A DNA stretch of 63,178 bases, filler included, from Hausera hauseri (taxonomy: Eukaryota), in assembly GCA_046269625.1 (NCBI GenBank). It is 12 parts of 12 records of this genome, joined end to end, with 100 filler letters (N's around TTAATTAATTAA, not from the genome) between each part and the next. Parts side by side here need not be neighbours in the genome. Positions count along the whole stretch, not along the records: positions 5,735 to 10,076 come from JBJURY010626664.1; 11 more parts are not named here. The stretch is one strand, 5' to 3'. A program made the position numbers and the translations under genes. The notes below the pieces were generated by a model. It was not told the DNA's origin. It worked only from the letters and a program-made list of their open reading frames with translations, and made no database searches. Positions 2,651-26,300 of the stretch are shown here, piece by piece; the stretch's first letter is position 1; each line of letters opens with the position of its first letter.

Positions 2651-2994
2651 CGGATTAGTCTATATTCGTCCCATAATTTAAATGATTGAGTGTATGAATA
2701 ACTGTCACAATTACCTTGTGTTATTTCGTCGGAACTGGTTGAGCAATAAGATGTCGGAATTGAATACCCCCAACACTGTGTGGCCGTAGGATGATTGTTA
2801 CATGACTTAGGTGACGTAGGATTTGACTTTGATCACAATTGTTTTTCCAATATCGATGGAGTCGGAAGTGACGATGGTGGATTTTTTTGTCGATCATGAA
2901 CGTAGCCACGATATTGCAAAAAATATGTTCTTGGCAAGGGTCAAATCACAAAATATTTTATCTAGATAACTGCCCTTCATAAGACTATTGTCAT

Positions 2995-5634
2995 CATGAA
3001 CGTTTAACTTAAATCTAGCAGCTGCCAATATTTTTTCTTCTACAGAATTGTTTGAAATTAATGGTAACACCCTGATCTCATTTTGTTGGCCGATTCTATG
3101 AACTCTATCCTGTGCTTGTAAGTCAAGATGGAGATTCCAATAAGAATCAAATATAACGACTGTATCAGCAGCTTGCAAGTTAAGTCCTAGTACTTCGGCT
3201 CTTGTAGATAACATAAATATAAAATAATTGTTGCCTGGATTATTAAATTTAGCCAGCAGGTCTCCTCTATCATCAGATTTAGTAGTTCCATCCAATCGCA
3301 AATGTTTAAGACCGATAGTCGAGATAATATCCCATTAATGTCATCAACGACGTCATTTGACAAAATATCAAAACATGATTTGTTGCCTTCAATTTTGGCG
3401 AAATTCTGTCCAGTGATTCAAATTTTCCGGAAGAACGGAAGAGATCAGAACCATAAATTTCTGTGGAAATAGGAATGTCTGAATTAGTTTTGTCCTTGCC
3501 CTGGCTTAAATAACTTTGTTCCGCAATAGCTTGTTCTATATGTTGAAACATAAATGGGTGATTGCAGATTTTCCGCAATTGCATAATCGTATTCATCAAT
3601 GTCCGGGTACCACCTTTACCTTTAGAAATCTTATTTTTCTCTGAGCCATCAGTTAGTGTTACACCTTTACTTTGCATATGACTACAAAGTTCGTTGTAAA
3701 CCTGATATTTCACACTTTATGACGTACTCGACTTTATCGAATAGTTGATTTTTGAGTTCTTTTTTTAACCGCCTCAGTAAAAATGGCCGTAGAACTTTAT
3801 GCAATTTCCGAATTATTAATAATGTTTCCTCCTTTTTCAGTTCTACATCTTTACCACTATTAGCAAAAAGAGCAATAAACCATTGTTCAAATGTTCTAAC
3901 ACTCTGAAACATATCCGGTAGAAGAAAGTTTAGTAAGGCCCACAATTCTGGTGTATTGTTCTGTAATGGTGTTCCGGTCAACAATGACCGGTATGGAGCC
4001 TCGTAATAAGCATTGAGAATTTGAGTCAACTTACAATGAAGATTTTTTATTCTGTGACCTTCATCGATAATCATATATTTACATTTAATCTTTGGCAAAA
4101 TACATTTGTCTATGATAATGTATTTGTACGTCGTCAGCAAAACATTAAATGTTCCACTTTTAAATTGTAGTTGATTCTGAATAGCTTTAAGGGTTGTTTG
4201 CGAGCCTTTGTACAAAATTTTAATGACCGTTGGTGATCATTTGTCGAACTCCAGTGGCCAATTAGAAATCGTTGACAACGGAATAATAATTAAATACGGC
4301 CCGTTGATTTTTTTTCTTTCCATTAAATACGTGATCAAACCAATTGTTTGAATCGTTTTGCCGAGTCCCATTTCGTCGGCAAGAATTCCTTTGATATTGT
4401 TGTTATATAACGACACAAGCCATTCCAAACCACGTATTTGATATTCTTTTAACGTACTGTTAATCATTAGCGATGGTTGTTGTTTGATTTCTTCACGAAC
4501 GGAGTTTGCTAACGTATAATACGTTTGTGTTTAATTTTTATGGTACTCATTATCTTCAATTCCGATATGAATTGATTCCACCTCGTCTTTTTTATCCATA
4601 ACAGTCGCTTCCGTTTCGGAAATTTCCCTAATTGGACTGGATGAGTTTTTGACGTAAATTTCCCAATTTTTGTGTTTTTCAAAAAACTGAAACAAATACA
4701 CAATTGTCGGTCCATCATCGTCGATTAGACTTTCCTTGCTTATCGCGTTATAAACATCGACATGGATGTCATTGGGCAATGTTTGCACGAATACCAAATT
4801 TTTTTCTATTCAGTAAACCTTTTGCAGCTTTATAAATATCATCCGAAAACACCGAACAAGCCTCCGACAAATACTGTGCAAATATTTTAACTGTAGCATT
4901 AAATTTTGATAAATCATCTTCTTTTCTTTTCCGAACAATTTGATCCTTTTTATGACCTTTTACCAACTTTGTTAAACCACTGATAAATTCATCGGTTTGC
5001 GACAACAAATAATGCAAACGCAAATCTTTCTTTTTATCAATCAATTTCCGAGAACCTTCGTCATCTTCAGCCATCAATCAATGCATTCGTTCTAGCTCGA
5101 TTCGTTCTTGTTCTTTTCGTTTGAAATTTTCATTGCTTGCAAAATAATTCAAAATAGATTTGTTGATTTTGGCAATTTTAAAATTAACACTTCGATGGAA
5201 TTATTTGAAGACTTTCAAATAGAAAAGAATCGAACTGAGAAATTCCTGTTGTTCTTGACGTTTTCGTTTTTCCTGTTCATATGGGATGTGTTTTTTGAGT
5301 GTTTTAATAAAATGTGATTCATGTAATGATTGTTTTTTTGTTCGTTTATATGCAGCACAATTCAAACAGTTTTCAACGTTTGTTGGATTTTTAATGCTGA
5401 TTAGAATGTCATTATGCAATTGTTTTTGAAATGACAATAACTTTAGAGCTTTTAATTCGATACTAATTTTGAGATTTTCTTCATTGTTGCTTGTCCAGTC
5501 GGAAAGTTTGTTGAGATAATTACGTAAATAATGAACACATCGTTGACATTCCTGACGGTCAAAAAGAGATTTAGCAAAATTATACGGCAGGAAAAACGAA
5601 GCTAAGGAATTGTAGAGATCACTGTCAAATATGT
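2995..5634 (-). pseudogene. SMARCA4: SWI/SNF ATPase BRG1/Brahma (SMARCA2/4) homologue: HSA, SNF2_N, helicase-C; intronless, multiply frameshifted, truncated after AARFKLNV
   Basis: [32 protein letters not shown]; [36 protein letters not shown]; [10 protein letters not shown]; LLTGTPLQN; [16 protein letters not shown]; [16 protein letters not shown]; [12 protein letters not shown]; [14 protein letters not shown]. Confidence 0.93.
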
Positions 5635-5734
5635 NNNNNNNNNNNNNNNNNNNNNNNNNNNNNNNNNNNNNNNNNNNNTTAATTAATTAANNNNNNNNNN
5701 NNNNNNNNNNNNNNNNNNNNNNNNNNNNNNNNNN
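5635..5734. other. Artificial contig linker (44N-TTAATTAATTAA-44N); identical linkers at 10077-10176, 14262-14361, 19193-19292, 23283-23382, 27631-27730, 33207-33306, 40225-40324, 45792-45891, 51976-52075, 58907-59006
   Basis: Identical 100-bp spacer with stop codons in all six frames; sequence character changes across each one. Confidence 0.98.
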
Positions 5735-6702
5735 TCGACTAAATCCATTTTCGCAGTATGATAAATGTAGTCTATCTTGTTATTCGTATATAAATACCAT
5801 TTTATATTTTCATTTGGTAACTTTCCAGTATTCTTTAGTGTTTCTTTTGTTACAAACAAATCTTCATAAGATGTTGAATATACCGCATTTGATCCACAAG
5901 TGGATACTGCTCTTTTGCGTGTTAACACTATTCCGTCTTTATCATTAGATGACATCAAAACTTTCAGGGAAGGGGTTTGTTTCAGAGTCCGTGGAGTAGG
6001 TAGGCTTACGTTATGATTGTGCTCCGGTTCTTGATATTGGTCTTCATAATACAAATCGCCTTGTATTTCGTACATAGATACTTGTTTCAGAAAGGCTAAT
6101 GGACATATCATAATCGTCTTTTCCCAAACTAATGTGGATTCTCCTAACATACATACGCCATCAGAGTACGTGCAGGATGGTGCAGTCAACATTTTTCCTG
6201 TAATCGCATCAAAGTTTACTTTGTATTCTTTTAGGGTAACAGTATAATCTTCTATTTGCACTACAAAAGATTCCTTTTGACCATTTATCATTACTTTTTC
6301 TCCATCACAACCTCCTCCATATCCAGGCCATATTTTCCCAGCTGTAACTATTCGTGAGTGAACTCGTTTTCCTATATCTGCTTGTACTGGTTGTTTTAGA
6401 CATATGTGAATTAAATCTATAGCTTTCCTGCAATTTTTAGCAGTTATTGTTACAGGTTTAGGTAATCGTTGTGGAATAATCACCGAATTCCACGAATTAT
6501 GACCGCAATTATAAGCGAATATTACTTTATTAACCTGGCATTAATTTAATTGAACTTATTGATAACTAATTGTCTGATAAAGATTGTAATTGTAAGGACC
6601 TTCTTTCTTCACTAATATTGGATTCGCGTTTTGACACTTACCTATGTCCACTAACGAAAGTCTGTCTGTTATTTCTGGTTGGGAACAATCATAAGCTTCT
6701 AA
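5735..6702 (-). CDS. Class III viral fusion glycoprotein ectodomain (chuvirus-G / gB-like env type), partial
   Basis: Signal-like hydrophobic run, then ALEAYDC..LSLVDIGKC..LYQ..CQV..YNCGHNSW..ITAKNCRKA..GGCDG..CTYSDGVCMLGESTLVW..CPL..CGSNAVYSTSYEDLFV..LYTNNKIDYIY; this Cys pattern is typical of the family. Confidence 0.8.
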
Positions 6703-6816
6703 TGCTTTGGCCGTTTTCAAACTGCTTACAGCTATTAAGTATAGTAACAAGTGAATAATTTGTACTACCCAGTCTGAGATGTTGGTATCCTTAGGATATA
6801 TTAGTATGGTTGGATC

Positions 6817-7200
6817 GAATCTTTTGAGAATTTCATCCCAACCACCATGTTTACTTACCCATTCTTTTGTTAACTTATCCGTATGGTGAGCTAGTTCCCT
6901 CACCGTATGGTGCAATTTAGCATCAATCTCTGTTTGGTTTTTGAAACTAACTACTATACATCCTAGTGCCATCAATAATCGATTCTGATTACAGTCTTTT
7001 AATAACAGTGTCAATGATTTATTTAAACCTCCTTTCATTTCGTATTTATGTAATAACCTCGTGATTTGTGACAAAAAGTTTCTAGCAGTTTCTATTATAG
7101 ACTGTAACGGAATTGTTGTAATAGCTGGTATTTGCCTAAGTTGCTTTGGGTTTTCTTTCTTAATTAGTTGCTCCAGAAGTTCATTGGTTGTCAATGTCAC
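6817..7200 (-). CDS. Bcl-2-like domain within the polyprotein
   Basis: BH2 motif TKEWVSKHGGWDEILKRF; divergent BH1 LLKDCNQNRLLMALG at the expected spacing; helical composition; followed by a hydrophobic segment. Confidence 0.7.
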
Positions 7201-7459
7201 TTATGGAATATTTGTATTATTCTGGTTTGATGTACTTGGCATTGGACCTTGTGTTGATTCATTTTTATCATCACTGATGGTGAATCGTTGTAAATTGTCA
7301 TACAATATATCTTCTAGTGTATCCCGTTGTTCCCTGCGTTTTCGTGATAAAGGTCTTTTCTTTCTTTGCCTTTCTGGTCTTTCTTCCTCTTCGGGATTTT
7401 CTTCATCATCGCTTACTGGGTTAAAATCGCATTTCCGCGGTCTTCCCCCTTTTTTCTTA

Positions 7460-7695
7460 CTGCCTATTTCCATATTAATATGATATATTTTTCCAGGAAG
7501 TAGTCCGTAATCCACAACATAATCGTTGTCAACGGCTAATCTGCCATAAACATCAGTTTTCGCTATTATATTGGTTTCGAGATCTAATTCCTCTAGTACT
7601 TTTATTCGAAGATCCGTAAATTTAGTGAACATTTTTGCTGTTACTTCAATTACTTGTTCTCGCTTATTAGTTTTAATTTATATGTTTATAATATA
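7460..7695 (-). CDS. Ubiquitin/SUMO-like domain within the polyprotein
   Basis: YIINI*IKTNKREQVIEVTAKMFTKFTDLRIKVLEELDL...VYGRLAVDNDYVVDYGLLPGKIYHINMEI parallels the beta-grasp pattern (IFVKT...ITLEV...V.AKI...AGKQLEDGRTLSDYNI...LHL). Confidence 0.6.
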
Positions 7696-8430
7696 TGGTT
7701 GCTTTCTTCTATGTTTGCGTCTTAAGTCTCTACGTAGAGTTTTTAATGATTTTTTTTGCGGCTAAAAAATAACACATATCATCCCTTGTCAGTGGCATAA
7801 GTAATTGTGCACACTCTATTCGCTTGATTAATGGTAATGTTTCATATTGTCGTAAAGCGTCCCATACCTCATTGGGTGCTGAATCGATCATTTGTAATTT
7901 GGCTTTAATCATTTCGATTGTTGTTTCCAGAGGATCACCGTATACTATGGAACCTGGTGGGATATTCATTTCTGGGATAAACTATTGATTCTCCATCGGT
8001 AATAATGTAGTTTCGGAATGTTGAAAAGTATCTGCTGTAGGTATAAATTCATAATACACAATTTCAAACATTTCATCTTCCTCTGTTATTATTTAGGTTT
8101 CCTTCTGAGATGTGCTGGGTTGCATAGCATCTCGAATATTTTCAAATAATATTGGTCGCTGTGGTGGAGCCGTTGGTTGAATGAAAGGTGCAACTAATCT
8201 ATCAACATACGGGTCTATCCATTCCCCGGTTGGTCCAATTCTGACATGTTTCTGTGAATATTTATTAGCATATATATCTGGATATCTTTGAGTTATTGGT
8301 TCAATCACCGGAACTGCCCCAGCTTCCCATCTCTCTCTAATTCCCCTATCGCCGGAAAAGATATTTATAACGTCTTTCGGCTTTCTATTATCCATGTTAC
8401 GTTATATTCCACTCGCATTGTTTTAGGTTT

Positions 8431-9648
8431 CTCATCTAAACATCTTTGTGCCATTATTTCCGAATTATGCCCGTTATATAGGTCCAAACATTTGTAGTTC
8501 CTGTATGTCTGTTCCAAATCATAAACAGCAGTTAGATTTTCTGGGTTTATATCCAATGTATTTAACAATACTGGTAACCGACGTACGATTATCATCTTTC
8601 CTGGTAAATATTTATTCATAAATTCGCTTACCGATTCTTGTAATTGTGGGTTGAGCCGTCTGAAATATTCAGTATACTTAGTAGTATCCTGTATAGTTGG
8701 ATATACGTAAATATTAAGGATTGTTTTTCCTTCCAGATTTTTGGCAGTGATCTGAGTAAGTCCTTTTTCGTTCCCTCTGGTTATGCATCTACCGGTAAGA
8801 ATGATTTCTTTGTCTTGCTTCATAGGTTTATCCACAGTTAACACGAGTACTTCCTTAAGCAATTGTATCAAATATATCGGGTGATTATCTAAAGGTTGAA
8901 TTTGGTAATCTCCTTCGTAGGGATAATTAGGAAGTATTTTGGTTTCCTTGGGTACTATCACCGTTTTATTATTAATTTTCAGTCTAGCCTCTCCCTGATT
9001 AGTGATTATAGCACATGGCGGGTCGTTTCTTTTAATCTAAATATCAGTCCTTTTAAGGTAGACTTTACCAATACCTTTCATGCAAACTAATTCTTGTTCT
9101 GCAATATCTACAAATTCTATTCGGTTAGTTTTCTTGTCTACAAACAATTCATCCCTTTTTTGAACAATATCCATATTTATACATTGTAATTTTGCTTCTG
9201 GGATCAAGGTAGTGTTACATGTTATTTCATGTTGAAGATGTCTATCGTTCTTATATAATGGTCTGCTTAGAAAAATAAAATATGGAGATCCTTGGCGGTT
9301 AAGTTTGATTTTGTATTCTTGTCGTAAATCATTTAATTGTTGTGATAATGTACTCTTTCTTTCACATTGATCATCTGGTGAAATAAAATTCTGGTCTACA
9401 CTAAATGTACCAAAGATATCAGTTTCCTTTAGTTGTATTTCCTTAAATAGCCATGGCAATTCTATTCCAACTATAAGTTTTCTACAGAGTAGTTGTCTAA
9501 GGTTTTCGTAGCATTTTTCTTTTTCCATATATACATCTTCTAATTCAATTATCAGATCTCCTTCGATATTCTCTATTCTTATTCGGTTAATTTTCGATTC
9601 CTGTTCTTGTTCGTTAGTTTTATCTATTGCTACAAAGGTTAAAAGTAA
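8431..9648 (-). CDS. Two degenerate DEDDh (ISG20/REX4-like) exonuclease-fold repeats (about 9330-9648 and 8431-8808)
   Basis: The repeats align without gaps: NIEGDLII / NLEGKTIL and LCRKLIVGIELPWLFKEIQLKETDIFGTFSVDQNF / LPGKMIIVRRLPVLLNTLDINPENLTAVYDLEQTY. They resemble REX4 RVSIVN..G..V, LKGRILVGH.L and H.S..DA (here GHNSEIMAQRCL). Confidence 0.5.
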
Positions 9649-10687
9649 ATCTTTAATTTCTTTAGTTTCTGGCCATAACATGTATGAAAGTGCATTTCTT
9701 TGGATATCTGGTACTTTTTGTTCTGCCTGATCCAATTGTTTCCTAGTTATGAAGGGTTTTTCCAGGATAGAATTATTGGTTGGCAGTTCAGGTGTTAGTT
9801 GATGAGATTCTGCTACAGATTTTGCCATTAACAAACCCGTAAAATCTGATTTAGTTTGTTCATTAAAAGTTACTGAACGACGAGGCGAAGTATTTCTTTC
9901 GTCGTTATTACTTTTTCTAATATATGGCATGTTTCCTTTTTCATTCGTAGGATTGTTATAAGGTGGTATTGCCGAATCCGGCTTTCTCTCATTGAAATTC
10001 TTGGAATATTCTGGCGTCGAATTCCTATCGTACCAATATGGAGAAGTATTTCTATTTGATGACGTTTAATTTCGTCNNNNNNNNNNNNNNNNNNNNNNNN
10101 NNNNNNNNNNNNNNNNNNNNTTAATTAATTAANNNNNNNNNNNNNNNNNNNNNNNNNNNNNNNNNNNNNNNNNNNNAGGCTGATCATGATGGTATGGTTT
10201 TTGTTTTATACGATGTAAGATTAACTTATTATACGTCACACATTATGTTAAGTTCAGATTTGTGTCAAAACAAGCTATATTATTACCAGTTTAGAGCGCT
10301 TTCAAGAACACATATCCGTTAACAAGAAACACGGTTTTAAATGTCTAACTTTATTGAAAGTGTTTAATGCCACATTACGTTTTTCACAATAATGTCATTA
10401 TTTTGCAAATACCTTCTATAACTAATATGTTTACACCCACTAAAGGTTACTTAAAATACGTCACATTATCGTTCACCTCAGACAACACAATATATTATTA
10501 TTCTCTGCGATAATGATTGCTTAGTTGATTAAATTGTTGGGAAAGGCAAAGTTATTAAGAAAAACATTGTCGATCATATAATTATTGGTATTATATAGAT
10601 AACAATCACATTATGAAAAGTTGACAACTTGATATTGATTGATTTATTAATAAATAGTAGATCACCTATAATCTGTATCTTTACCAA

Positions 10688-14361: not shown

Positions 14362-17300
14362 TTTTCCGTTGTTTCTAATACCCAAACTCTATCTCCAGGA
14401 TTAATGTCGGTTTTTCCACTTTGCCATTTTTTTGTCCTCCAAGTAATCAATAACTCGTTTCTCCATCTTTTCCAATATTTATCACTTATTTACTGTACGT
14501 ATTGCCATCGTGCGGTTAGGCTGTTCTTCGTTGTACCTGTGAAATTTGAATTGATCTCGGAGTTGTAACCGGTTATAATGAAGTGTTTAGGTGTGAGAAT
14601 AATGTCGTCTTTACTGTCAGCTGACGGAACTGTAAGTGGTCTACTATTTATTATTCATTCAATCTCACATAATATAGTTAATAGTTCTTCATCGGTGACT
14701 CGAGCGTCTCCCAGGATTTTATTTAGTGCTCCTTTAACTGATTTTATTAGCGCCTCATAGGCTCCAACAAAGTGCAGTGCGCTTGGAGGGTTGAATATTT
14801 ATCGTATATGGTTTTGTTCCAGATTCAATTTTGCTGAATAGTTATCTGGTTGTATTTCATAAATCTCCTTGTTTGCTCCAACAAAATTTGTTCCGTTGTC
14901 TGATACAATTATTGATGGTTGTTCCCTTCTTGACATAAACCTTTTGAGGGCTCAGATGAATGAATCTGTATACAAACCTGAGGCTAACTCTAGATGTATT
15001 CCTCTACAAACAAGGCAAGTGAAAAGACAAAAAAACGTTTCTCTTGGACATTTCCTCTCCTTTGTTTGGTATTTATTGGTCCTGCAAAATCCACGCCTAT
15101 CTTATCGAAGGCTTTTAAAGGTAACTGAAGTTTAAACGTTGGTATGGGTGCCATTTTAACGTTCATCCCTCTAGCTCTGTCTCTCTGGCACGTTTTGCAA
15201 TAATTTTGATAGGATTTTACTAGTTTTCTCATTTTTCTGAACCAACATTTTTGAGACAATTCAGCCACCTGATGGTTTATCCCCGCAACATGTTTCAGCT
15301 TCAAATGTGTATCTTCTATTATCTTCTATTGGTGTCGTGATCAATCTACTGTTGGAATGTAAGATGCCTTCAGTATCTAAAATCGGGTCTGCCTTGTATA
15401 TTGGGCTTTTGTTATTTTTAGCCTTTTTTTCTTTAAGTAACTTTATTTCCACTTGGAATTCTCGCTCTTGGTCTGATTTTATAAGTTCTGTTTCGGCCTT
15501 GTTCAGAAGATATGACGGGTCTAACTCTATTGTGCTCAATCCTTCTTGTTGTATTAATTGCTCTACTTTCGAATCAATGCAACTCTGCCATCGAGATTTT
15601 TCATTCGTTACGGTAGTCTCATTCTCTTCATTACTCATTAAAAAACTTCTTAATTTTGGTTCTTAATTGTGACCGTTTTCCGACCATGTAAACAGACTAG
15701 TAGTTTATTTTCTTTTCTCTATATCGGTTTCCTTCAAAAATTCTTGGGGTTGTTCTGGCCAACTAACTTCAACTTCAACTCTGGTTCATGCCACCAACTA
15801 TGATTTTCCTTTATTTCCTGTATAGATTGGCCTCTTGACAATGCATCTGCTGGATTTTCACTTGTTTTCACACATTTCCACTGAACGTTTAAAGAGTGTT
15901 TCTGTATGTAAGCTACACGATTTGCTACGAATGTTTTATAGTGCTTACTGCAATTTTGGATCCAGTGTAATACATTTTTACTGTCAGTCCAAAGTGTAAC
16001 CCTTTCATTCTTCCCTTTCAGAGCTTTTATTAGTCTTTCTTTTAGTTTGACTCCCACACACGCCACTAATAATTCTAGTCTTGGTATCGCTATCGATTCC
16101 CCTGGAGTCACTTTTGCTTTAGCAGCTACTAATGCTGCCATATAGTTCCCGTTCTTTTTCCTCGTTCTGACATAACCCACCGCGCTGTAACCTAATCTTG
16201 AGGCGTCACAAAATATATGCAATTCCCAATTCTCATCTTTATCTAATATTAGGTGTCTTTCAATCTCTATTTCGTTCAACAAGTAGACCTGTTCCATCCA
16301 ACATTGTATTCTTTTCGTATACTCATCTAGTAGTCTTATCCCATCCATAATTTCCAATCCATAACTCCTGTATCATCATCTCTCCAGTTATAGTATAACA
16401 ACTTAAGAATCCCAACGGATCATATATCTTGGCTACCGCACTCAGTGACGTTCTCTTCGTAATTGTGTCTTCAATTATGATCCTTTTATCGAACGAGTAT
16501 TTGTCTTTCGCTACTTCCCACTTCATACCCAATGTCTTTGTGACAATCGTGGTTTTCTCCAATATATTGTATTCCTTCGATCTCTTCACATGTGGGATTT
16601 TAGCGACAAGGAGTTCTGAGTTGGTTGCCCATTTATATGGAACCATTTCCGCTCTATTTCATATCGTATTCAGTCCGTGATATAATTCTACTACTGCTTC
16701 TTCTGTAGGCACTGCATCTATGCAGTCATCCATATATGTTGAACACGTTATGGTTTCAACTGCTCTCTGATATGTCTATTTAAATCCTTCAGCGTTCAAT
16801 CTTGACACCAACTGCGCTAATAAAGGGGAACTGTTCAATCGAATACTAATCTATTGAATTCGTACGTAATTTCTTTATCATTTTTCTTCCATAAAAAAGT
16901 AAATATTTTTTGTCCGCTGAATCCACTGGTATTTGGAGGAACATATCGTGTATGTCGCAGATTAAAACTTACTTGTTGCGACGCATCCGGAGTAAAATAT
17001 CAACTACGTTAAGTTTTAATTTCGAACCGATTTTCAAGAAGTCATTTAAACATTTTCCTTTGTTCTTCGTTGCTGCGTCAAATACTATTCGACATTTTGT
17101 GGTGTCACGATCAAACTTAACTACAGGAAAATGTGGTAATAACCATCTTGTCTCTCTTTCCTCTTTTTCCGATATTTCTCTTATGTATGATTTTTCTTCG
17201 TACTTTTTAATGACTTTATTCTATTCCTCTATCACCCTAATTTCTTTATCCAATATCTTTATTAATAAATTTAATCTTCTCTTTGCCGTCCATGATGAGG

Positions 17301-19000
17301 CAAACCCACTGACATCTGGATGTTTCTCTTCCTTCCATGGTGACCTAACACAAAACCTTTCTTTTTCATATCTTATTCTGCTCGTCACTCTTTTTAATAA
17401 TTCAGCCTCTAAGCTATTTAACTCAGGCCTTTCCTGAAACTCCTGTTCTGTTTCCCATAGTCTGTTTCAATCTTCTTGTATTTCATCAGTTCTAGTCCAG
17501 AATGTTCTAACGAAATTGGTCCTTACTTTTTTCTTTTCATCCCCGATTATTTCAAACCACATCCATCCAAGTGGAGTTAATCTGGCCACCGGTTCGTTTG
17601 TCTTTCCTGCTATCTCTTTTATAGACCTATGTAGATGCATGTAGTTCGCACCTATTATTCCATTAACTGACTTCGGTGATTTTCGAGCAGCGAACTTTAT
17701 ATTTCTCAAATGTGGTCATTTGTTCTTCTCGATCTCTCAATTCACGGCCATCATTTTCCCAGTTGGATCATGGAGAACCAACGCTTCAAATGGGATGTTA
17801 ACCTTCCTGTTCTTACTTCGTAAGATCATTTTACCCGTTCCATTTTCGACCTTGTTGTCGCCCCACCTACTACCATAACAGATACACTTTCCTGACTACC
17901 AACTAATTTTAGCTGTTCTACAATAGAGCGTTTTACAAAACATTCTGTGCTCGCATCGTCCAATAACATGCATACCTTTACTTTTCGCTCTCCGTTTTCC
18001 AACCACACGTCTACAGTTCGCAAAGCTATTTTATTTCTTGTCGTTGTCTCTTCTGATCGTTGAATTACGTACGTGTTAACTCGTGCCCCAATATCGCCTC
18101 CTACGTCTCCCTCCTTGTTTATTCTTCCTTCTGTATGGAGTGTATAGAACGTTTTTTCTTGTTTTTTAAAATTATCCTTTTTTAACTCCAATTCATGAGT
18201 AAAGTGACATTTTTCTCCGTACCTACAATTTCCATTCAGATGGTATTTACATATTCGTGTTTCATTTTTCTTTTCTTTATTATGCAAGAATTTACAGTTA
18301 TTACCGAATTTACAAGTCCCATCTTTCTCAAATTCCCAACAAAGTCTTTTCTCGATCTTATCCGTTGTTTTAATGCTGTTACCTTTCTTTGTCTTGCATT
18401 GAATTTGGGTCTCGTTTTGATTAGATTGTCTATCTATGTAAAAGATCTTCCGTGCTTTTTTATTGTCTCCTGTTTCCGAATGATACGTTATTCTTGTCTA
18501 TAGAGGGGAAATAATTTTCAACTCTCGAACTATCGGTAGTTGCCGTTTGATCAAATTTACGTTCATGTACAAATCCTAACGGTGATCTATTCTTGAATGT
18601 ATTGAAAACGTTGATGCCTCTGATTCTTTCAATAGTGTTCCTTTGTATACTTGCTTCTGACTCCACCCAAGTTTTCATTTCTTCAACTGTCCAATTTAGC
18701 CTCTTTTCGGTGGCATATTTCTCCCATAACAATACTATAACCTCTGAGAGCTCCTCTGCAAGGCTTTGATACAATAGCCCTCCACAAAGCTCCTCTGTTC
18801 TCCCTAGATTCCTCAATCTTACAATTATTCCTTCTAACAATGCCACAAATTCGTATAGCCTTCTTATGTCTTTCTCGTCAATTGCCCGGAACCTCATGAC
18901 TTCAGTCATGAATGCCGTATAAGACCGCTGTTCACCACCGTAGTAAGAGTCCAGTTTTTCCATGGATGCCCTATACCCTTTAAATGTTCTATACATAATT
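14362..19000 (-). mobile_element. Decayed BEL/Pao LTR retrotransposon (gag, protease, RT, RNase H, integrase), truncated
   Basis: DUF1759-like Gag (KLDSYYGG..LYEFVALLE); protease LLDDASTECFV..PVARLTPLGW; RT WLLPHFPVVK..TTKCRIVFDAA..YMDDCID; KTLGMKW..KIYDPLGFL; RNase H LHIFCDAS..IPRLEL..WTDS..NPADALSRG; integrase GVDFAGP..IVSDNGTNFVGA..APHFVG. Confidence 0.93.
18195..18341 (-). other. Tandem CCCH zinc fingers in BEL Gag
   Basis: CWEFEKDGTCKFGNNCKFLH (C-x8-C-x5-C-x3-H) and CKYHLNGNCRYGEKCHFTH (C-x7-C-x5-C-x3-H), in frame with the protease. Confidence 0.88.
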
Positions 19001-19481
19001 GGTATAACAAATTACACATGTTTTTCTTAAAAGAACAACCAGCTTTCGTTCGACATGTTTTATTTGAGATCAGCATAAAATTTTATACATACTTTTCTTT
19101 AAAAAAAATGACTACATTATGTCCGATATGATCCCCCGGCGCGTTTTTCACCATCTTTTCCCTAGGCCCATGTGAATTTCCTTTCCGGACGTNNNNNNNN
19201 NNNNNNNNNNNNNNNNNNNNNNNNNNNNNNNNNNNNTTAATTAATTAANNNNNNNNNNNNNNNNNNNNNNNNNNNNNNNNNNNNNNNNNNNNTACTTATT
19301 ATACACCACTTTTTTCATGTGTTTATAATACACTTTATAATACTTTACTGCATGCAAAAATAAATACACTTTATAATACTTTACTTCATACAAAAACAAA
19401 TACACTAAATACGAAAAATAAGTACACAATACGAAAATACTAACTACTAAAAAATTTATTTCAAATAAAACTATATATAAT

Positions 19482-23382: not shown

Positions 23383-26300
23383 TTGCTGTGGATATTTATA
23401 ACAAATTTAACAATGCTGTCTGAATGTAGTTCTCACGAAACCATTCTACAGTTTTAACAAATGTGATTCTGGCTTGATCATCCTGACTTCTTAGAAGACC
23501 CACACGATTAGTATTTTCTTTTACAAATGTGACTAGACGGATTGGAATAAGGTCTGGATTATTTTCAACGGCATCTTTTATGACAGTTAATTATTGAGAT
23601 ACCATGAGATTGCAGAGACTGACTCTTGATGCATCGTCAACGTATTCCATTTCAGATGTAAAGTCCACCAAATCGTGAAATTCTTCTTCAATACAGTAAA
23701 CGATGTAATTCATAAGAGACCATTTATCATCTGGCCTTCGACACTGGTAACATGTCGAGACTCTGTATTCGAAAATCACAGGCTTTACCACGCCTGGAAT
23801 CGTTCAATCTATTGCCAAATGCTAAAACAATTTCAAGAATTTTTTTTAAGCTTATGACTATCCATAATATTACGACACGCAAGCGTAACAATACTGATTT
23901 TCTCTTGAAGACCAAAGTAGGTTTCATCGAAGGCATCCATATATAAAATTGCTTTTAATTTCATTTCAACACGGTCCATACATAACAACAAGGCTACCAA
24001 ACGATCTTCTTCGGACAATACATTCAAATTATCCCCGGTAAAATCATGATACATATCAATTCCCTGATAACTGGGTAGTTGATATAACAATCGATCTGCA
24101 GCTTCCGAAGGCATATCAGAATTCGTTATTGAATAAGACAAAGGTCTACCCCAATCTCCAAACGTATTCGAATCCGAGTAAAGTAACTTTTCTTGCTTCA
24201 AAAATGATACCACAACCCTCAAATATTTTTGTCTGTTGGAATCTAAAAATGATATTTTGTCTGATTGGTCTGATTCTGGAACAACCTTCAATTCTGATGG
24301 TTTTCGTTTTATATTAGACAATTTAGCTTTTACACTAAACGTATCAATTGGAGGTATATCGTACTCATGTTCGACGGATGGAACTTTAAATATTTTTTCA
24401 AAACCATCAAGATCTAATTGGTTTTCAACATGACTTCCGTCGAGTTCTTCAAATACTGTGCCTTGTTGGTTCCGAAGAATATTCCATTTAATAAGTGGAG
24501 CATCTCCAGTAACACTAATACTTGACATTTCCATCAAATTCGATAAATTCCCATCTTTTTCATTCAGAACTGAGTCCAGTTCATCGGTAACCAATTTTTC
24601 AGCTTTGAGTATTGAAAACTCATCTATTTTAGAGACTAGATGATTGTCAGTAATTGACATAAATGAATTTCCATTCATTTGAAAAGGTGGAGGAGGAAGA
24701 CTGCTAAAGGGTAACGACGCACTGTCTATTGTATCCAGCGCATTATTTGACTGATCATTTACAATCATCGTTTCTCTTATTGGCAGTGGCGGATGAAGAA
24801 CATCAACATCACCGGACAACAATCGATGTCCTTGTGGGTGAATTTGGTTATATACACCGGTGTTTTGAGCAGCATTCGGAACAGTCAACTTCTTCAATTG
24901 ATCTTGAAGTTCATCAATCTGTCGTTTCATATCTGATTCGCGATCAGATAAATTGACGTTGATGTCACGGATTTTGGAGCGTAGAGATTCAACCAACAAC
25001 GAAAGTTCTTCTTCTCGGTGTTTTGCTTTCTCTAATTCCTTTTTAGCTTTTCTGACACGATCATCGGATTCCTTCATTTTTCGGGCTTTTTCACCATCAG
25101 CAAGGGTAAGGGCTTCTTGTAAACTACTAACGTCTTTCTCAAGACGTTCACATTCAGCAACGTATGCCTCTTTAGCTTCAGCATCTTCCAGCAGGACGCT
25201 ACAATCAACCATATTATCTATATATGCGTCGACCTGCCGATTCAATCTATCTCCGGGCCGTTCTTGTAATTTTTTTTAAAATCATCAAGCCCCAATAAAC
25301 TAAATTCAAACTGTGAATAAACCCGTAAATTTATGTTTTCCACCGAATGAACAATGATATTTATAAACTGCATATTGGAAACCGCATAATCGATATTGTA
25401 ATCATCAAGAGGAAGTGTTTCATGATGTCGATAATAGAACATTAGCGTTTCGAATCTCCTTTCTTCTCCAGTCATAGCTTTAAATAAATCAAATGCTTTT
25501 AAAACTCGTTCGTGACCACCTTCTATAAGGCAAACAGCAGATAGTAAGTCAAGAACGAGACTTTTTGTTTGATAACTTGGATGGAGAAGGCACATCGTTA
25601 CCACATTGATTGTGTCTTTATGTTCAAAGGCTAATCGGCAGCCTCTCTGATTGTTTAAGAGAGTTCTGAAACATTTCAGACTTAGATGAAGGCATTCCTT
25701 AATGGAATCAGCCATCGTTGTGTGAGATTTTGCAGATTTAGAAACCGAGCTTGCATTTCTACACAATCCTGAACTTCTGGACTTTGAAGAGTTCAACCGT
25801 GTGCTACTCCGAGACGAGCCGTCAAATATTCGCCTTAATGACTGATTCGCAGCACTGAGATAATCGTTTTCTGATCCGTTTTCTAAAACGGATCCAATGG
25901 TTGTTGGATAATTAGATATGCTGCTACTGCCGCCGAATACCGTCGGAGAGATTTGTATATCTTCTGTTTTTATCAAATGCAACAAAGTTTGAGACATGTA
26001 ATCGACCAAAGTTTCCAAGCCATTATGTTTCAGAAAATCATAGACCCATTCAACATTATTCGTACGTAACGAAATCTCTGTTGCTGATAAAATCTGTTTA
26101 GCACTCTGAAATTCATCCTTTCTCTTTGAATTTGTTATTTTATACGACTTCAGACCTTTGATCAAAGTGACATAATGAAATGCGGAACATTTCGGATTTT
26201 TTTGACTCGAAATTCAACAAAAGTTCAATTTTCTGTGGAGCTTCTAACTGTTCAATGTTTTGGATATTTTGCGGAGTAACGTCCAATGACTGAATAAATA

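Follow-up and report, generated by a model that had tools for sequence, protein, structure and literature searches.

A candidate Bcl-2-like domain ahead of the envelope protein in a decayed, probably Burro-like retroelement copy from Hausera hauseri

The planarian Burro elements are giant Gypsy-like LTR retrotransposons, with thousands of copies and with decayed copies in Dugesia japonica (Arkhipova and Yushenova, 2019, PMC6431247, citing Grohme 2018 and Jurka 2007 on Burro). In ORF1 of Burro/GYPSM1, a Ubi2/SUMO-like motif is followed by BCL-2, then by Env and then by the protease, and the Env matches the fusion glycoproteins of mononegaviruses (PMC6431247). Burro has a length of about 30 kb, with LTRs, and a single ORF in which Env is preceded by Gag and followed by PR-RT-RH-IN. 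Burro elements carry BIR repeats too, and their interference with host apoptosis is presented as a possibility awaiting experiment (PMC6431247). The passages of that paper on Burro do not discuss a hydrophobic segment or a dual role for one, and the whole word "Burro" is absent from PMC8532177. Envelope proteins of the herpesvirus gB type are likewise known from flatworm retroelements. GAG-ENV-POL elements of this type have been reported in Platyhelminthes, in nine table rows, and the ectodomains of gB-type errantiviruses generally have a signal peptide, or else a second transmembrane helix, beside them (Chary and Hayashi, 2026, PMC13524379). The main text of that paper contains no occurrence of "bcl", "ubiquitin" or "Burro".

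Viral Bcl-2 proteins, such as KsBcl-2 (PMC9027176) and ORFV125 (PMC7719400), are products of stand-alone genes. The NWGR signature of Bcl-2 proteins, which constitutes BH1, lies at the start of helix 5 (PMC9027176), and its G and R are important for BH3 binding (PMC9027176, PMC7719400); for ORFV125, which has SPGR instead, binding of Puma is about 250-fold weaker (PMC7719400). A further parallel comes from the polyproteins of HCV and the pestiviruses, in which an internal signal sequence starts the translocation of the next glycoprotein and remains attached to the upstream protein, anchoring it by its C-terminus (PMC8310223). That upstream protein is either another glycoprotein or the capsid, whose anchor can be trimmed by signal peptide peptidase (PMC8310223).

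We herein describe a contig of Hausera hauseri in which a Bcl-2-like domain, a hydrophobic segment and a gB-type Env follow one another in frame. With Burro/GYPSM1 it shares the in-frame order of ubiquitin-like, BCL2-like and Env parts (the first recognised here from a low-confidence model), a very high copy number, and decayed copies with stops and frameshifts (PMC6431247). With viral Bcl-2s it shares the GGW of BH2, the Arg of BH1, the spacing between the two motifs, and a hydrophobic segment that follows BH2 by about 20 residues (PMC9027176, PMC7719400). Unlike in viral Bcl-2s, the domain lies within a polyprotein and lacks both the W and the G of NWGR, which is intact in all four viral Bcl-2s fetched here (chosen for it) and is represented by at least G and R in ORFV125 (PMC7719400). 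Unlike in HCV and the pestiviruses, the upstream protein would be a host-derived regulator. As a BCL2-like motif ahead of Env has already been published for Burro (PMC6431247), the layout is not new, and this copy represents another, rather distant lineage rather than a new principle. The remaining interest lies in the function of the domain and in its borrowed anchor.

The locus and its reading frame

The window analysed here is a stretch of 63,178 nucleotides made of 12 separate contigs, with 11 identical linkers between them (each 44 N, a 12-base spacer with stops in all frames, and 44 N). The joined contigs are unrelated and neighbours across a linker are no context for one another, so that the usable context is limited to positions 5735-10076. 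The features are listed below, with P0001 and P0002 denoting the two related proteins found in our searches.

5635-5734 and 10077-10176: linkers bounding the contig
5735-10076, minus strand: whole contig, occupied by one long, decayed ORF from a retroelement with an envelope gene, truncated by the contig at both ends
8335-10074, minus strand: upstream part of the ORF, 52-61% identical to P0001
7455-7704, minus strand: predicted ubiquitin-like (beta-grasp) domain, with approximate bounds from residues 1025-1109 of P0001 and a stop at 7678-7680
7204-7454, minus strand: low-complexity linker, basic and acidic, between the ubiquitin-like and Bcl-2-like domains
6817-7200, minus strand: candidate divergent Bcl-2-like helical domain, from TIGR00865, PDB phmmer, a viral Bcl-2 profile and identity to P0001, where it spans about residues 1196-1335
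6979-6990, minus strand: BH1-equivalent, NQNR, with Arg kept and Trp and Gly lost; P0001 has DQNR
6817-6864, minus strand: BH2 motif with GGW, by direct reading; kept in P0001
6703-6771, minus strand: hydrophobic segment that is predicted to act as the internal signal peptide of Env, from PF24664 coverage, P0001 and P0002
5737-6702, minus strand: Env ectodomain, class III fusogen of the chuvirus / HSV gB type, with two stops and cut by the contig end

All motifs are carried by a single stop-free frame of 214 codons on the minus strand, from 7200 to 6559. In reading order it contains NQNR (6990-6979), EWVSKHGGWDEILKRF (6864-6817), a 15-residue spacer, WVVQIIHLLLYLIAVSSLKTAKA (6771-6703) and LEAYDC (6702-6685), and its first Met is residue 55. 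The initial annotation had placed this layout in one uninterrupted ORF, which is true of the 214 codons, but stops flank them on both sides. An in-frame stop lies immediately upstream at 7201-7203, Env is interrupted 42 codons past LEAYDC by two stops at 6556-6558 and 6541-6543, and the frame extends both ways through these three and a further one at 7678-7680. The copy on this contig is dead, and Env cannot be made from it. What the annotation had proposed more broadly, a Bcl-2-like domain in frame ahead of a fusogen, with one hydrophobic segment linking the two and a retroelement as the setting, was borne out, the fusogen being recognised by PF24664.

The comparison with P0001, a stop-free protein of 1963 residues, places these fragments in a larger frame. 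Tblastn of P0001 on the contig gave three colinear blocks, 10074-8335 (56% identity), 8326-7742 (36%) and 7755-5737 (68%), in which the frame changes twice, and against P0001 the 4.3-kb contig has nine in-frame stops and two frameshifts. As the entire contig runs colinear with P0001 and the copy in the window has nine stops, the contig is read as one decayed long ORF. Identity to P0001 is 79% in the ubiquitin-like domain, 50% in the linker (45 of 90 residues, below the flanking domains), 74% in the Bcl-2-like domain (96 of 130), 78% in the hydrophobic segment (18 of 23) and 66% in Env (215 of 325); the Bcl-2-like domain is thus conserved better than the linker and Env. P0001 ends 11 residues past its PF24664 match, shortly after the transmembrane helix of Env, whereas Burro continues into the protease (PMC6431247). 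It has no gag or pol match in Pfam and may in turn be part of an ORF of greater length.

At least two of the stops are particular to this copy. In run X1, one of two public runs (X1 and X2) in which the stretch is present, the aligned depth differs from the stretch in 1794 of 1967 at 7201-7203 and in 38999 of 39062 at 7678-7680; as most of the depth differs at both places, both stops are specific to the copy in the window. Among the 20 best-supported variable places in the Env frame, selected out of 986, codon positions 1, 2 and 3 are represented 6, 9 and 5 times, a split that fits decay of this copy and is uninformative on selection in the family.

P0001 was the single homologue of the Bcl-2-like domain found in all homologue searches. 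A word-index search with the domain alone returned it as one protein among 94 candidates (about 73-74% identical and free of stops), and the other word-index searches for homologues returned none among 7,993 candidates and none among 28. No related loci were found in viral contigs or metagenome contigs, and the ESM Atlas gave no usable match for the domain, a part of P0001 yielding only rows below 0.9. P0001 forms a one-member cluster. A HMMER library search had two matches, P0001 and P0002, the latter in the signal/AYDC region. P0002 has a related Env, and its N-terminus is coiled-coil-like and basic where the Bcl-2-like domain would be; judged by its sequence, it indicates that what precedes the signal peptide is variable among related Envs.

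Upstream of the Bcl-2-like domain, the ubiquitin-like domain was recovered by three fold searches of one low-confidence model. Within the linker region, at 7260-7460 on the minus strand, the basic clusters KKKGGRPRK and RKKRPLSRKRR resemble nuclear localisation signals, and KKKGGRPRK is kept in P0001. Sequence searches of Pfam, NCBIfam and PDB gave nothing relevant for the part at 8335-10074. By eye, two stretches in tandem within 8335-9720 (minus strand; about residues 365-480 and 655-800 of P0001) have a degenerate DEDDh look of the REXO4/ISG20 type, lacking the catalytic acids; this exonuclease resemblance was set aside, as no sequence search supports it. The start of P0001 (residues 1-300; 9900-10074 on the minus strand) is a low-complexity region rich in Arg, Asp and Asn. 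Such regions frequently come after Gag.

A proposed processing scheme and the altered BH1 motif

Taken as a whole, the contig is probably best explained as part of a polyprotein of a Burro-like element, in which a ubiquitin-like domain, a divergent Bcl-2, a hydrophobic segment and Env follow one another, and which in intact copies would be processed in steps. The polyprotein would be synthesised in the cytosol, as the stop-free P0001 suggests. The hydrophobic segment would very likely function as an internal signal sequence and send the Env ectodomain into the ER. Signal peptidase is then predicted to cleave before LEAYDC, as small residues are found at -3 and -1 before the predicted cleavage in three of three sequences (by hydropathy and direct reading). 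It is reasonably likely, by analogy with HCV and the pestiviruses, that the segment would stay on the upstream fragment and tether the Bcl-2-like domain to the cytosolic face of the ER in tail-anchor fashion. In the putative last step, held tentatively, the most likely action of the domain, with an altered BH3 groove, would be to dampen the death or stress signals of cells in which the element is expressed.

If this scheme is true, one anti-death protein would be left on the ER for each envelope protein made, and the transposon would shield the cells in which it multiplies, as large DNA viruses do. Should the domain protect cells, this would be a retrotransposon managing host cell death via a captured regulator. 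The complete claim, namely that Burro-like retrotransposons possess a working membrane-bound Bcl-2 death inhibitor with the Env signal peptide as tail anchor and a BH1 lacking W and G, is in our estimate rather unlikely.

The BH1 motif reads NQNR at 6990-6979, as the annotation had stated, and not NWGR; its Asn is private to this copy, because P0001 has DQNR and nearly all of the aligned depth at position 6990 differs from the stretch (19708 of 19754 in X1 and 541 of 541 in X2). NQNR aligns with the NWGR of a Pfam-confirmed viral Bcl-2 in blastp (E 1e-4 in a single comparison), and MAFFT agrees; blastp of the domain against one viral Bcl-2 ran from BH1 through BH2 with one gap. The distance from BH1 to the Trp of BH2 is 43 residues here and 44, 43 and 41 in three references. 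The NWGR signature is absent from both sequences, this ORF and P0001, with W and G replaced and R retained.

It is conceivable, on the replacement of W and G, that the domain retains the Bcl-2 fold without BH3 binding and serves as a membrane-bound scaffold, as a signalling inhibitor or in particle assembly, a reading which differs from the proposed scheme in the last step only and which we hold to be a serious, if tentative, alternative. Some poxvirus Bcl-2-fold proteins act as scaffold or signalling inhibitor. The half of the domain before BH2 has no significant similarity to viral Bcl-2s, and the domain is nonetheless well conserved (74%), which suits such a role. On the other hand, both sequences retain the Arg whose partner is the BH3 Asp, viral Bcl-2s with an altered BH1 are still able to bind BH3 peptides (PMC9027176, PMC7719400), and the BIR repeats of Burro point to cell-death control (PMC6431247).

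Origin of the domain and of the hydrophobic segment

The domain very probably is of true Bcl-2 origin and much diverged, a rating from sequence likeness that we give in part because of the published Burro context. Among the 18,950 models of NCBIfam, TIGR00865 (bcl-2) was the sole match both for P0001 (E 0.0069, 16.4 bits) and for this ORF (E 0.19, 11.7 bits), with scores below its cut-off of 283. In PDB phmmer searches, three of the five matches at E<=10 belong to the Bcl-2 family, namely A1 and two near-identical chains, which we take from their entry names to be of schistosome origin; in PDB profile searches, an unrelated designed protein scores level with Bcl-2 A1. PF00452, the Pfam family proposed as a check of the original call, matches neither this ORF nor P0001, and three viral Bcl-2s used as controls score E 1e-11 to 7e-10. 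Loss of the GGW in homologues had been named beforehand as one half of the refuting condition, and the GGW is kept in P0001, the sole homologue found. The W-x4-GW of BH2 is in place in both sequences and was aligned to Bcl-2 A1 and viral Bcl-2s, and the pattern W-x4-[GD]GW occurs in one of the 298 stop-to-stop peptides of at least 60 residues in the window (28,873 residues).

As viral references, four IMG/VR proteins (L014, L020, L022 and L068) were used, three of them Pfam-confirmed and one with a clear NWGR; since they were retrieved by BH1/BH2 patterns, they are biased toward a BH2 match. The BH2 pattern search gave 19 viral loci, of which 16 were read in frame and one of these was a recognisable Bcl-2, later joined by L016; 44 prokaryote loci were left out of the reference set. 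One of the references, at 258-791 of the viral contig L068, is a Bcl-2 protein in which NWGR is intact and a hydrophobic tail is lacking. With a profile of the four viral Bcl-2s, this ORF scored 19.5 bits and P0001 12.4, ranks 1 and 2 of 300, and the next, unrelated peptide scored 5.6. BH2 contributes most of the domain's similarity score. When BH2 was held fixed and the rest shuffled, the observed score with this profile was reached by none of 1000 shuffles in one case and by 10 of 1000 in the other; for the part before BH2 alone, it was reached in 163 of 1000 and 334 of 1000, which is not above chance. In pairwise scores against three references, BH2-fixed shuffles reached the score in 380 of 2000 and 659 of 2000, a result that is explained by BH2 alone.

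These numbers also bear on the reading that the GGW resembles BH2 by coincidence and lies in some unrelated helical part of the polyprotein. It draws on the missing PF00452 match, on E-values that are weak throughout, on an hhalign probability of 6% over 26 columns and on a signal that lies mainly in BH2. We nevertheless regard it as improbable, as bcl-2 was recovered in two independent libraries (NCBIfam and PDB), BH2-fixed shuffles fall below the observed score with the four-sequence profile, the BH1 spacing fits, and a BCL2-like motif has been published in exactly this slot between the ubiquitin-like part and Env (PMC6431247). Structure prediction, which bears on the other half of the refuting condition, gave two AlphaFold (AF2) models of low confidence (pLDDT 52 and 37); in the second (pLDDT 37), whose packing is poorly defined, residue 242 of DQNR opens a long helix (242-258), the place taken by NWGR in Bcl-2 proteins, and the helix pattern is compatible with the eight-helix Bcl-2 fold. 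A death-domain identity (NF-kB p100, E 0.6-3; PF00531, E 0.11) was dropped, the matches being weak.

For the Env that follows, PF24664 matches 5743-6540 with E 7.5e-12 and 44.4 bits, above the cut-off of 27, and residues 1345-1952 of P0001 with E 1.9e-63 and 215 bits under the same cut-off. In the 214-codon ORF, a PF24664 match takes in the hydrophobic segment, residues 149-194 of the ORF corresponding to positions 6-50 of the profile. An equivalent segment is present in P0002, where the N-terminus is unrelated, and the distance from the segment end to AYDC is 7-8 residues there and 9-10 here. Because of this equivalent in P0002, and because PF24664 covers the segment, the segment is best read as the internal signal of Env itself. 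From these sequences, the anchor of the Bcl-2 domain is better read as borrowed from Env than as inherited from Bcl-2.

A strict version of the annotation's reading takes the segment as the tail anchor of the Bcl-2 gene itself, which would have been captured along with the domain and put to use afterwards as Env's signal peptide. In its favour, the hydrophobic stretch begins 20-21 residues past the Trp of BH2, a distance between those of two viral Bcl-2 tails (18 and 25), and the hydrophobicity is similar (Kyte-Doolittle 19-mer, 1.77 here and 1.98 in P0002, against 2.04 and 2.16 in the two tails). However, P0002 shows a matching segment and cleavage-site pattern, almost equally far from AYDC, behind its unrelated N-terminus, the Env profile covers the segment, and gB-type errantivirus ectodomains generally have a flanking signal peptide or transmembrane helix (PMC13524379), so that inheritance from a Bcl-2 gene appears quite unlikely. 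Hydrophobic stretches are alike anyway, and the descent of the segment is therefore not readable from these few sequences.

The segment lies inside the ORF, at a distance past BH2 that is usual for a Bcl-2 tail, and would form a C-terminal anchor only upon cleavage. In the polyproteins of HCV and the pestiviruses, internal signal sequences remain as the anchor of the upstream protein (PMC8310223), and by this analogy a dual role of the segment is plausible and topologically ordinary. Intramembrane cleavage could free the Bcl-2-like domain from the membrane. Our search found no literature on dual use of the segment in these elements; the figures of PMC6431247 and the supplements of Grohme 2018 may show the segment.

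Element class and repeat family

The contig is most likely a copy of a Burro-like Gypsy element. The likeness to Burro is strong, and it is a likeness to the published description, not to Burro sequence; the contig ends within Env on one side and before any gag on the other. A Pfam scan of its six ORFs gave no gag or pol match, and no gag, PR, RT, IN, BIR, MATH or LTR is visible in 5735-10076. As for the Env, the six planarian errantiviruses Smed_errantivirus_1-6 share with it the gB type and a signal peptide or transmembrane helix ahead of the ectodomain (PMC13524379). The six Schmidtea mediterranea Envs (planarian C1a) also share its cysteine pattern and long domain-I insertion, a placement made by eye and by one short motif: the 4-mer VLMS of this Env occurs twice in the supplementary file of PMC13524379, in Smed_1 and Smed_2 only.

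Within the two public runs, 15,065 contigs of X1 and 1,826 of X2 align to the stretch, in four likeness classes and over 30 of 30 bins in both, and 11,386 of the 15,065 in X1 are less than 95% alike to it; no RNA run containing the stretch is listed. On these counts, the contig is a member of a large and diverged family of repeats, the aligned depth being no copy count. The annotation had left the context open between retroelement and RNA virus, and only the former is retained: that the contig is an endogenised or free gene of a chuvirus-like RNA virus, as the naming of the Env family for Monjiviricetes and the lack of gag or pol might suggest, is most improbable given thousands of diverged contigs over all 30 bins in both runs, as a large repeat family would give, an order of ubiquitin-like domain, Bcl-2 and Env equal to that of a Gypsy element (PMC6431247), and no relative found in viral contigs.

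Several other contigs of the window hold features of their own. A decayed BEL/Pao element, recognised by DUF1759 and Peptidase_A17, lies at 17826-19011 and 15734-16372 on the minus strand, and its gag-protease region contains tandem CCCH zinc fingers (E 1.9e-13). At 23833-26213 (minus strand), a Diaphanous-type formin with GBD, FH3 and FH2 is spread over two long overlapping frames with no apparent introns, and is possibly a retrocopy. Fragmented and apparently intron-free pieces of a SNF2/Brahma-like helicase are found at 2894-5686 on the minus strand, where they adjoin gag- and protease-like ORFs at 56-1613, as judged by eye.
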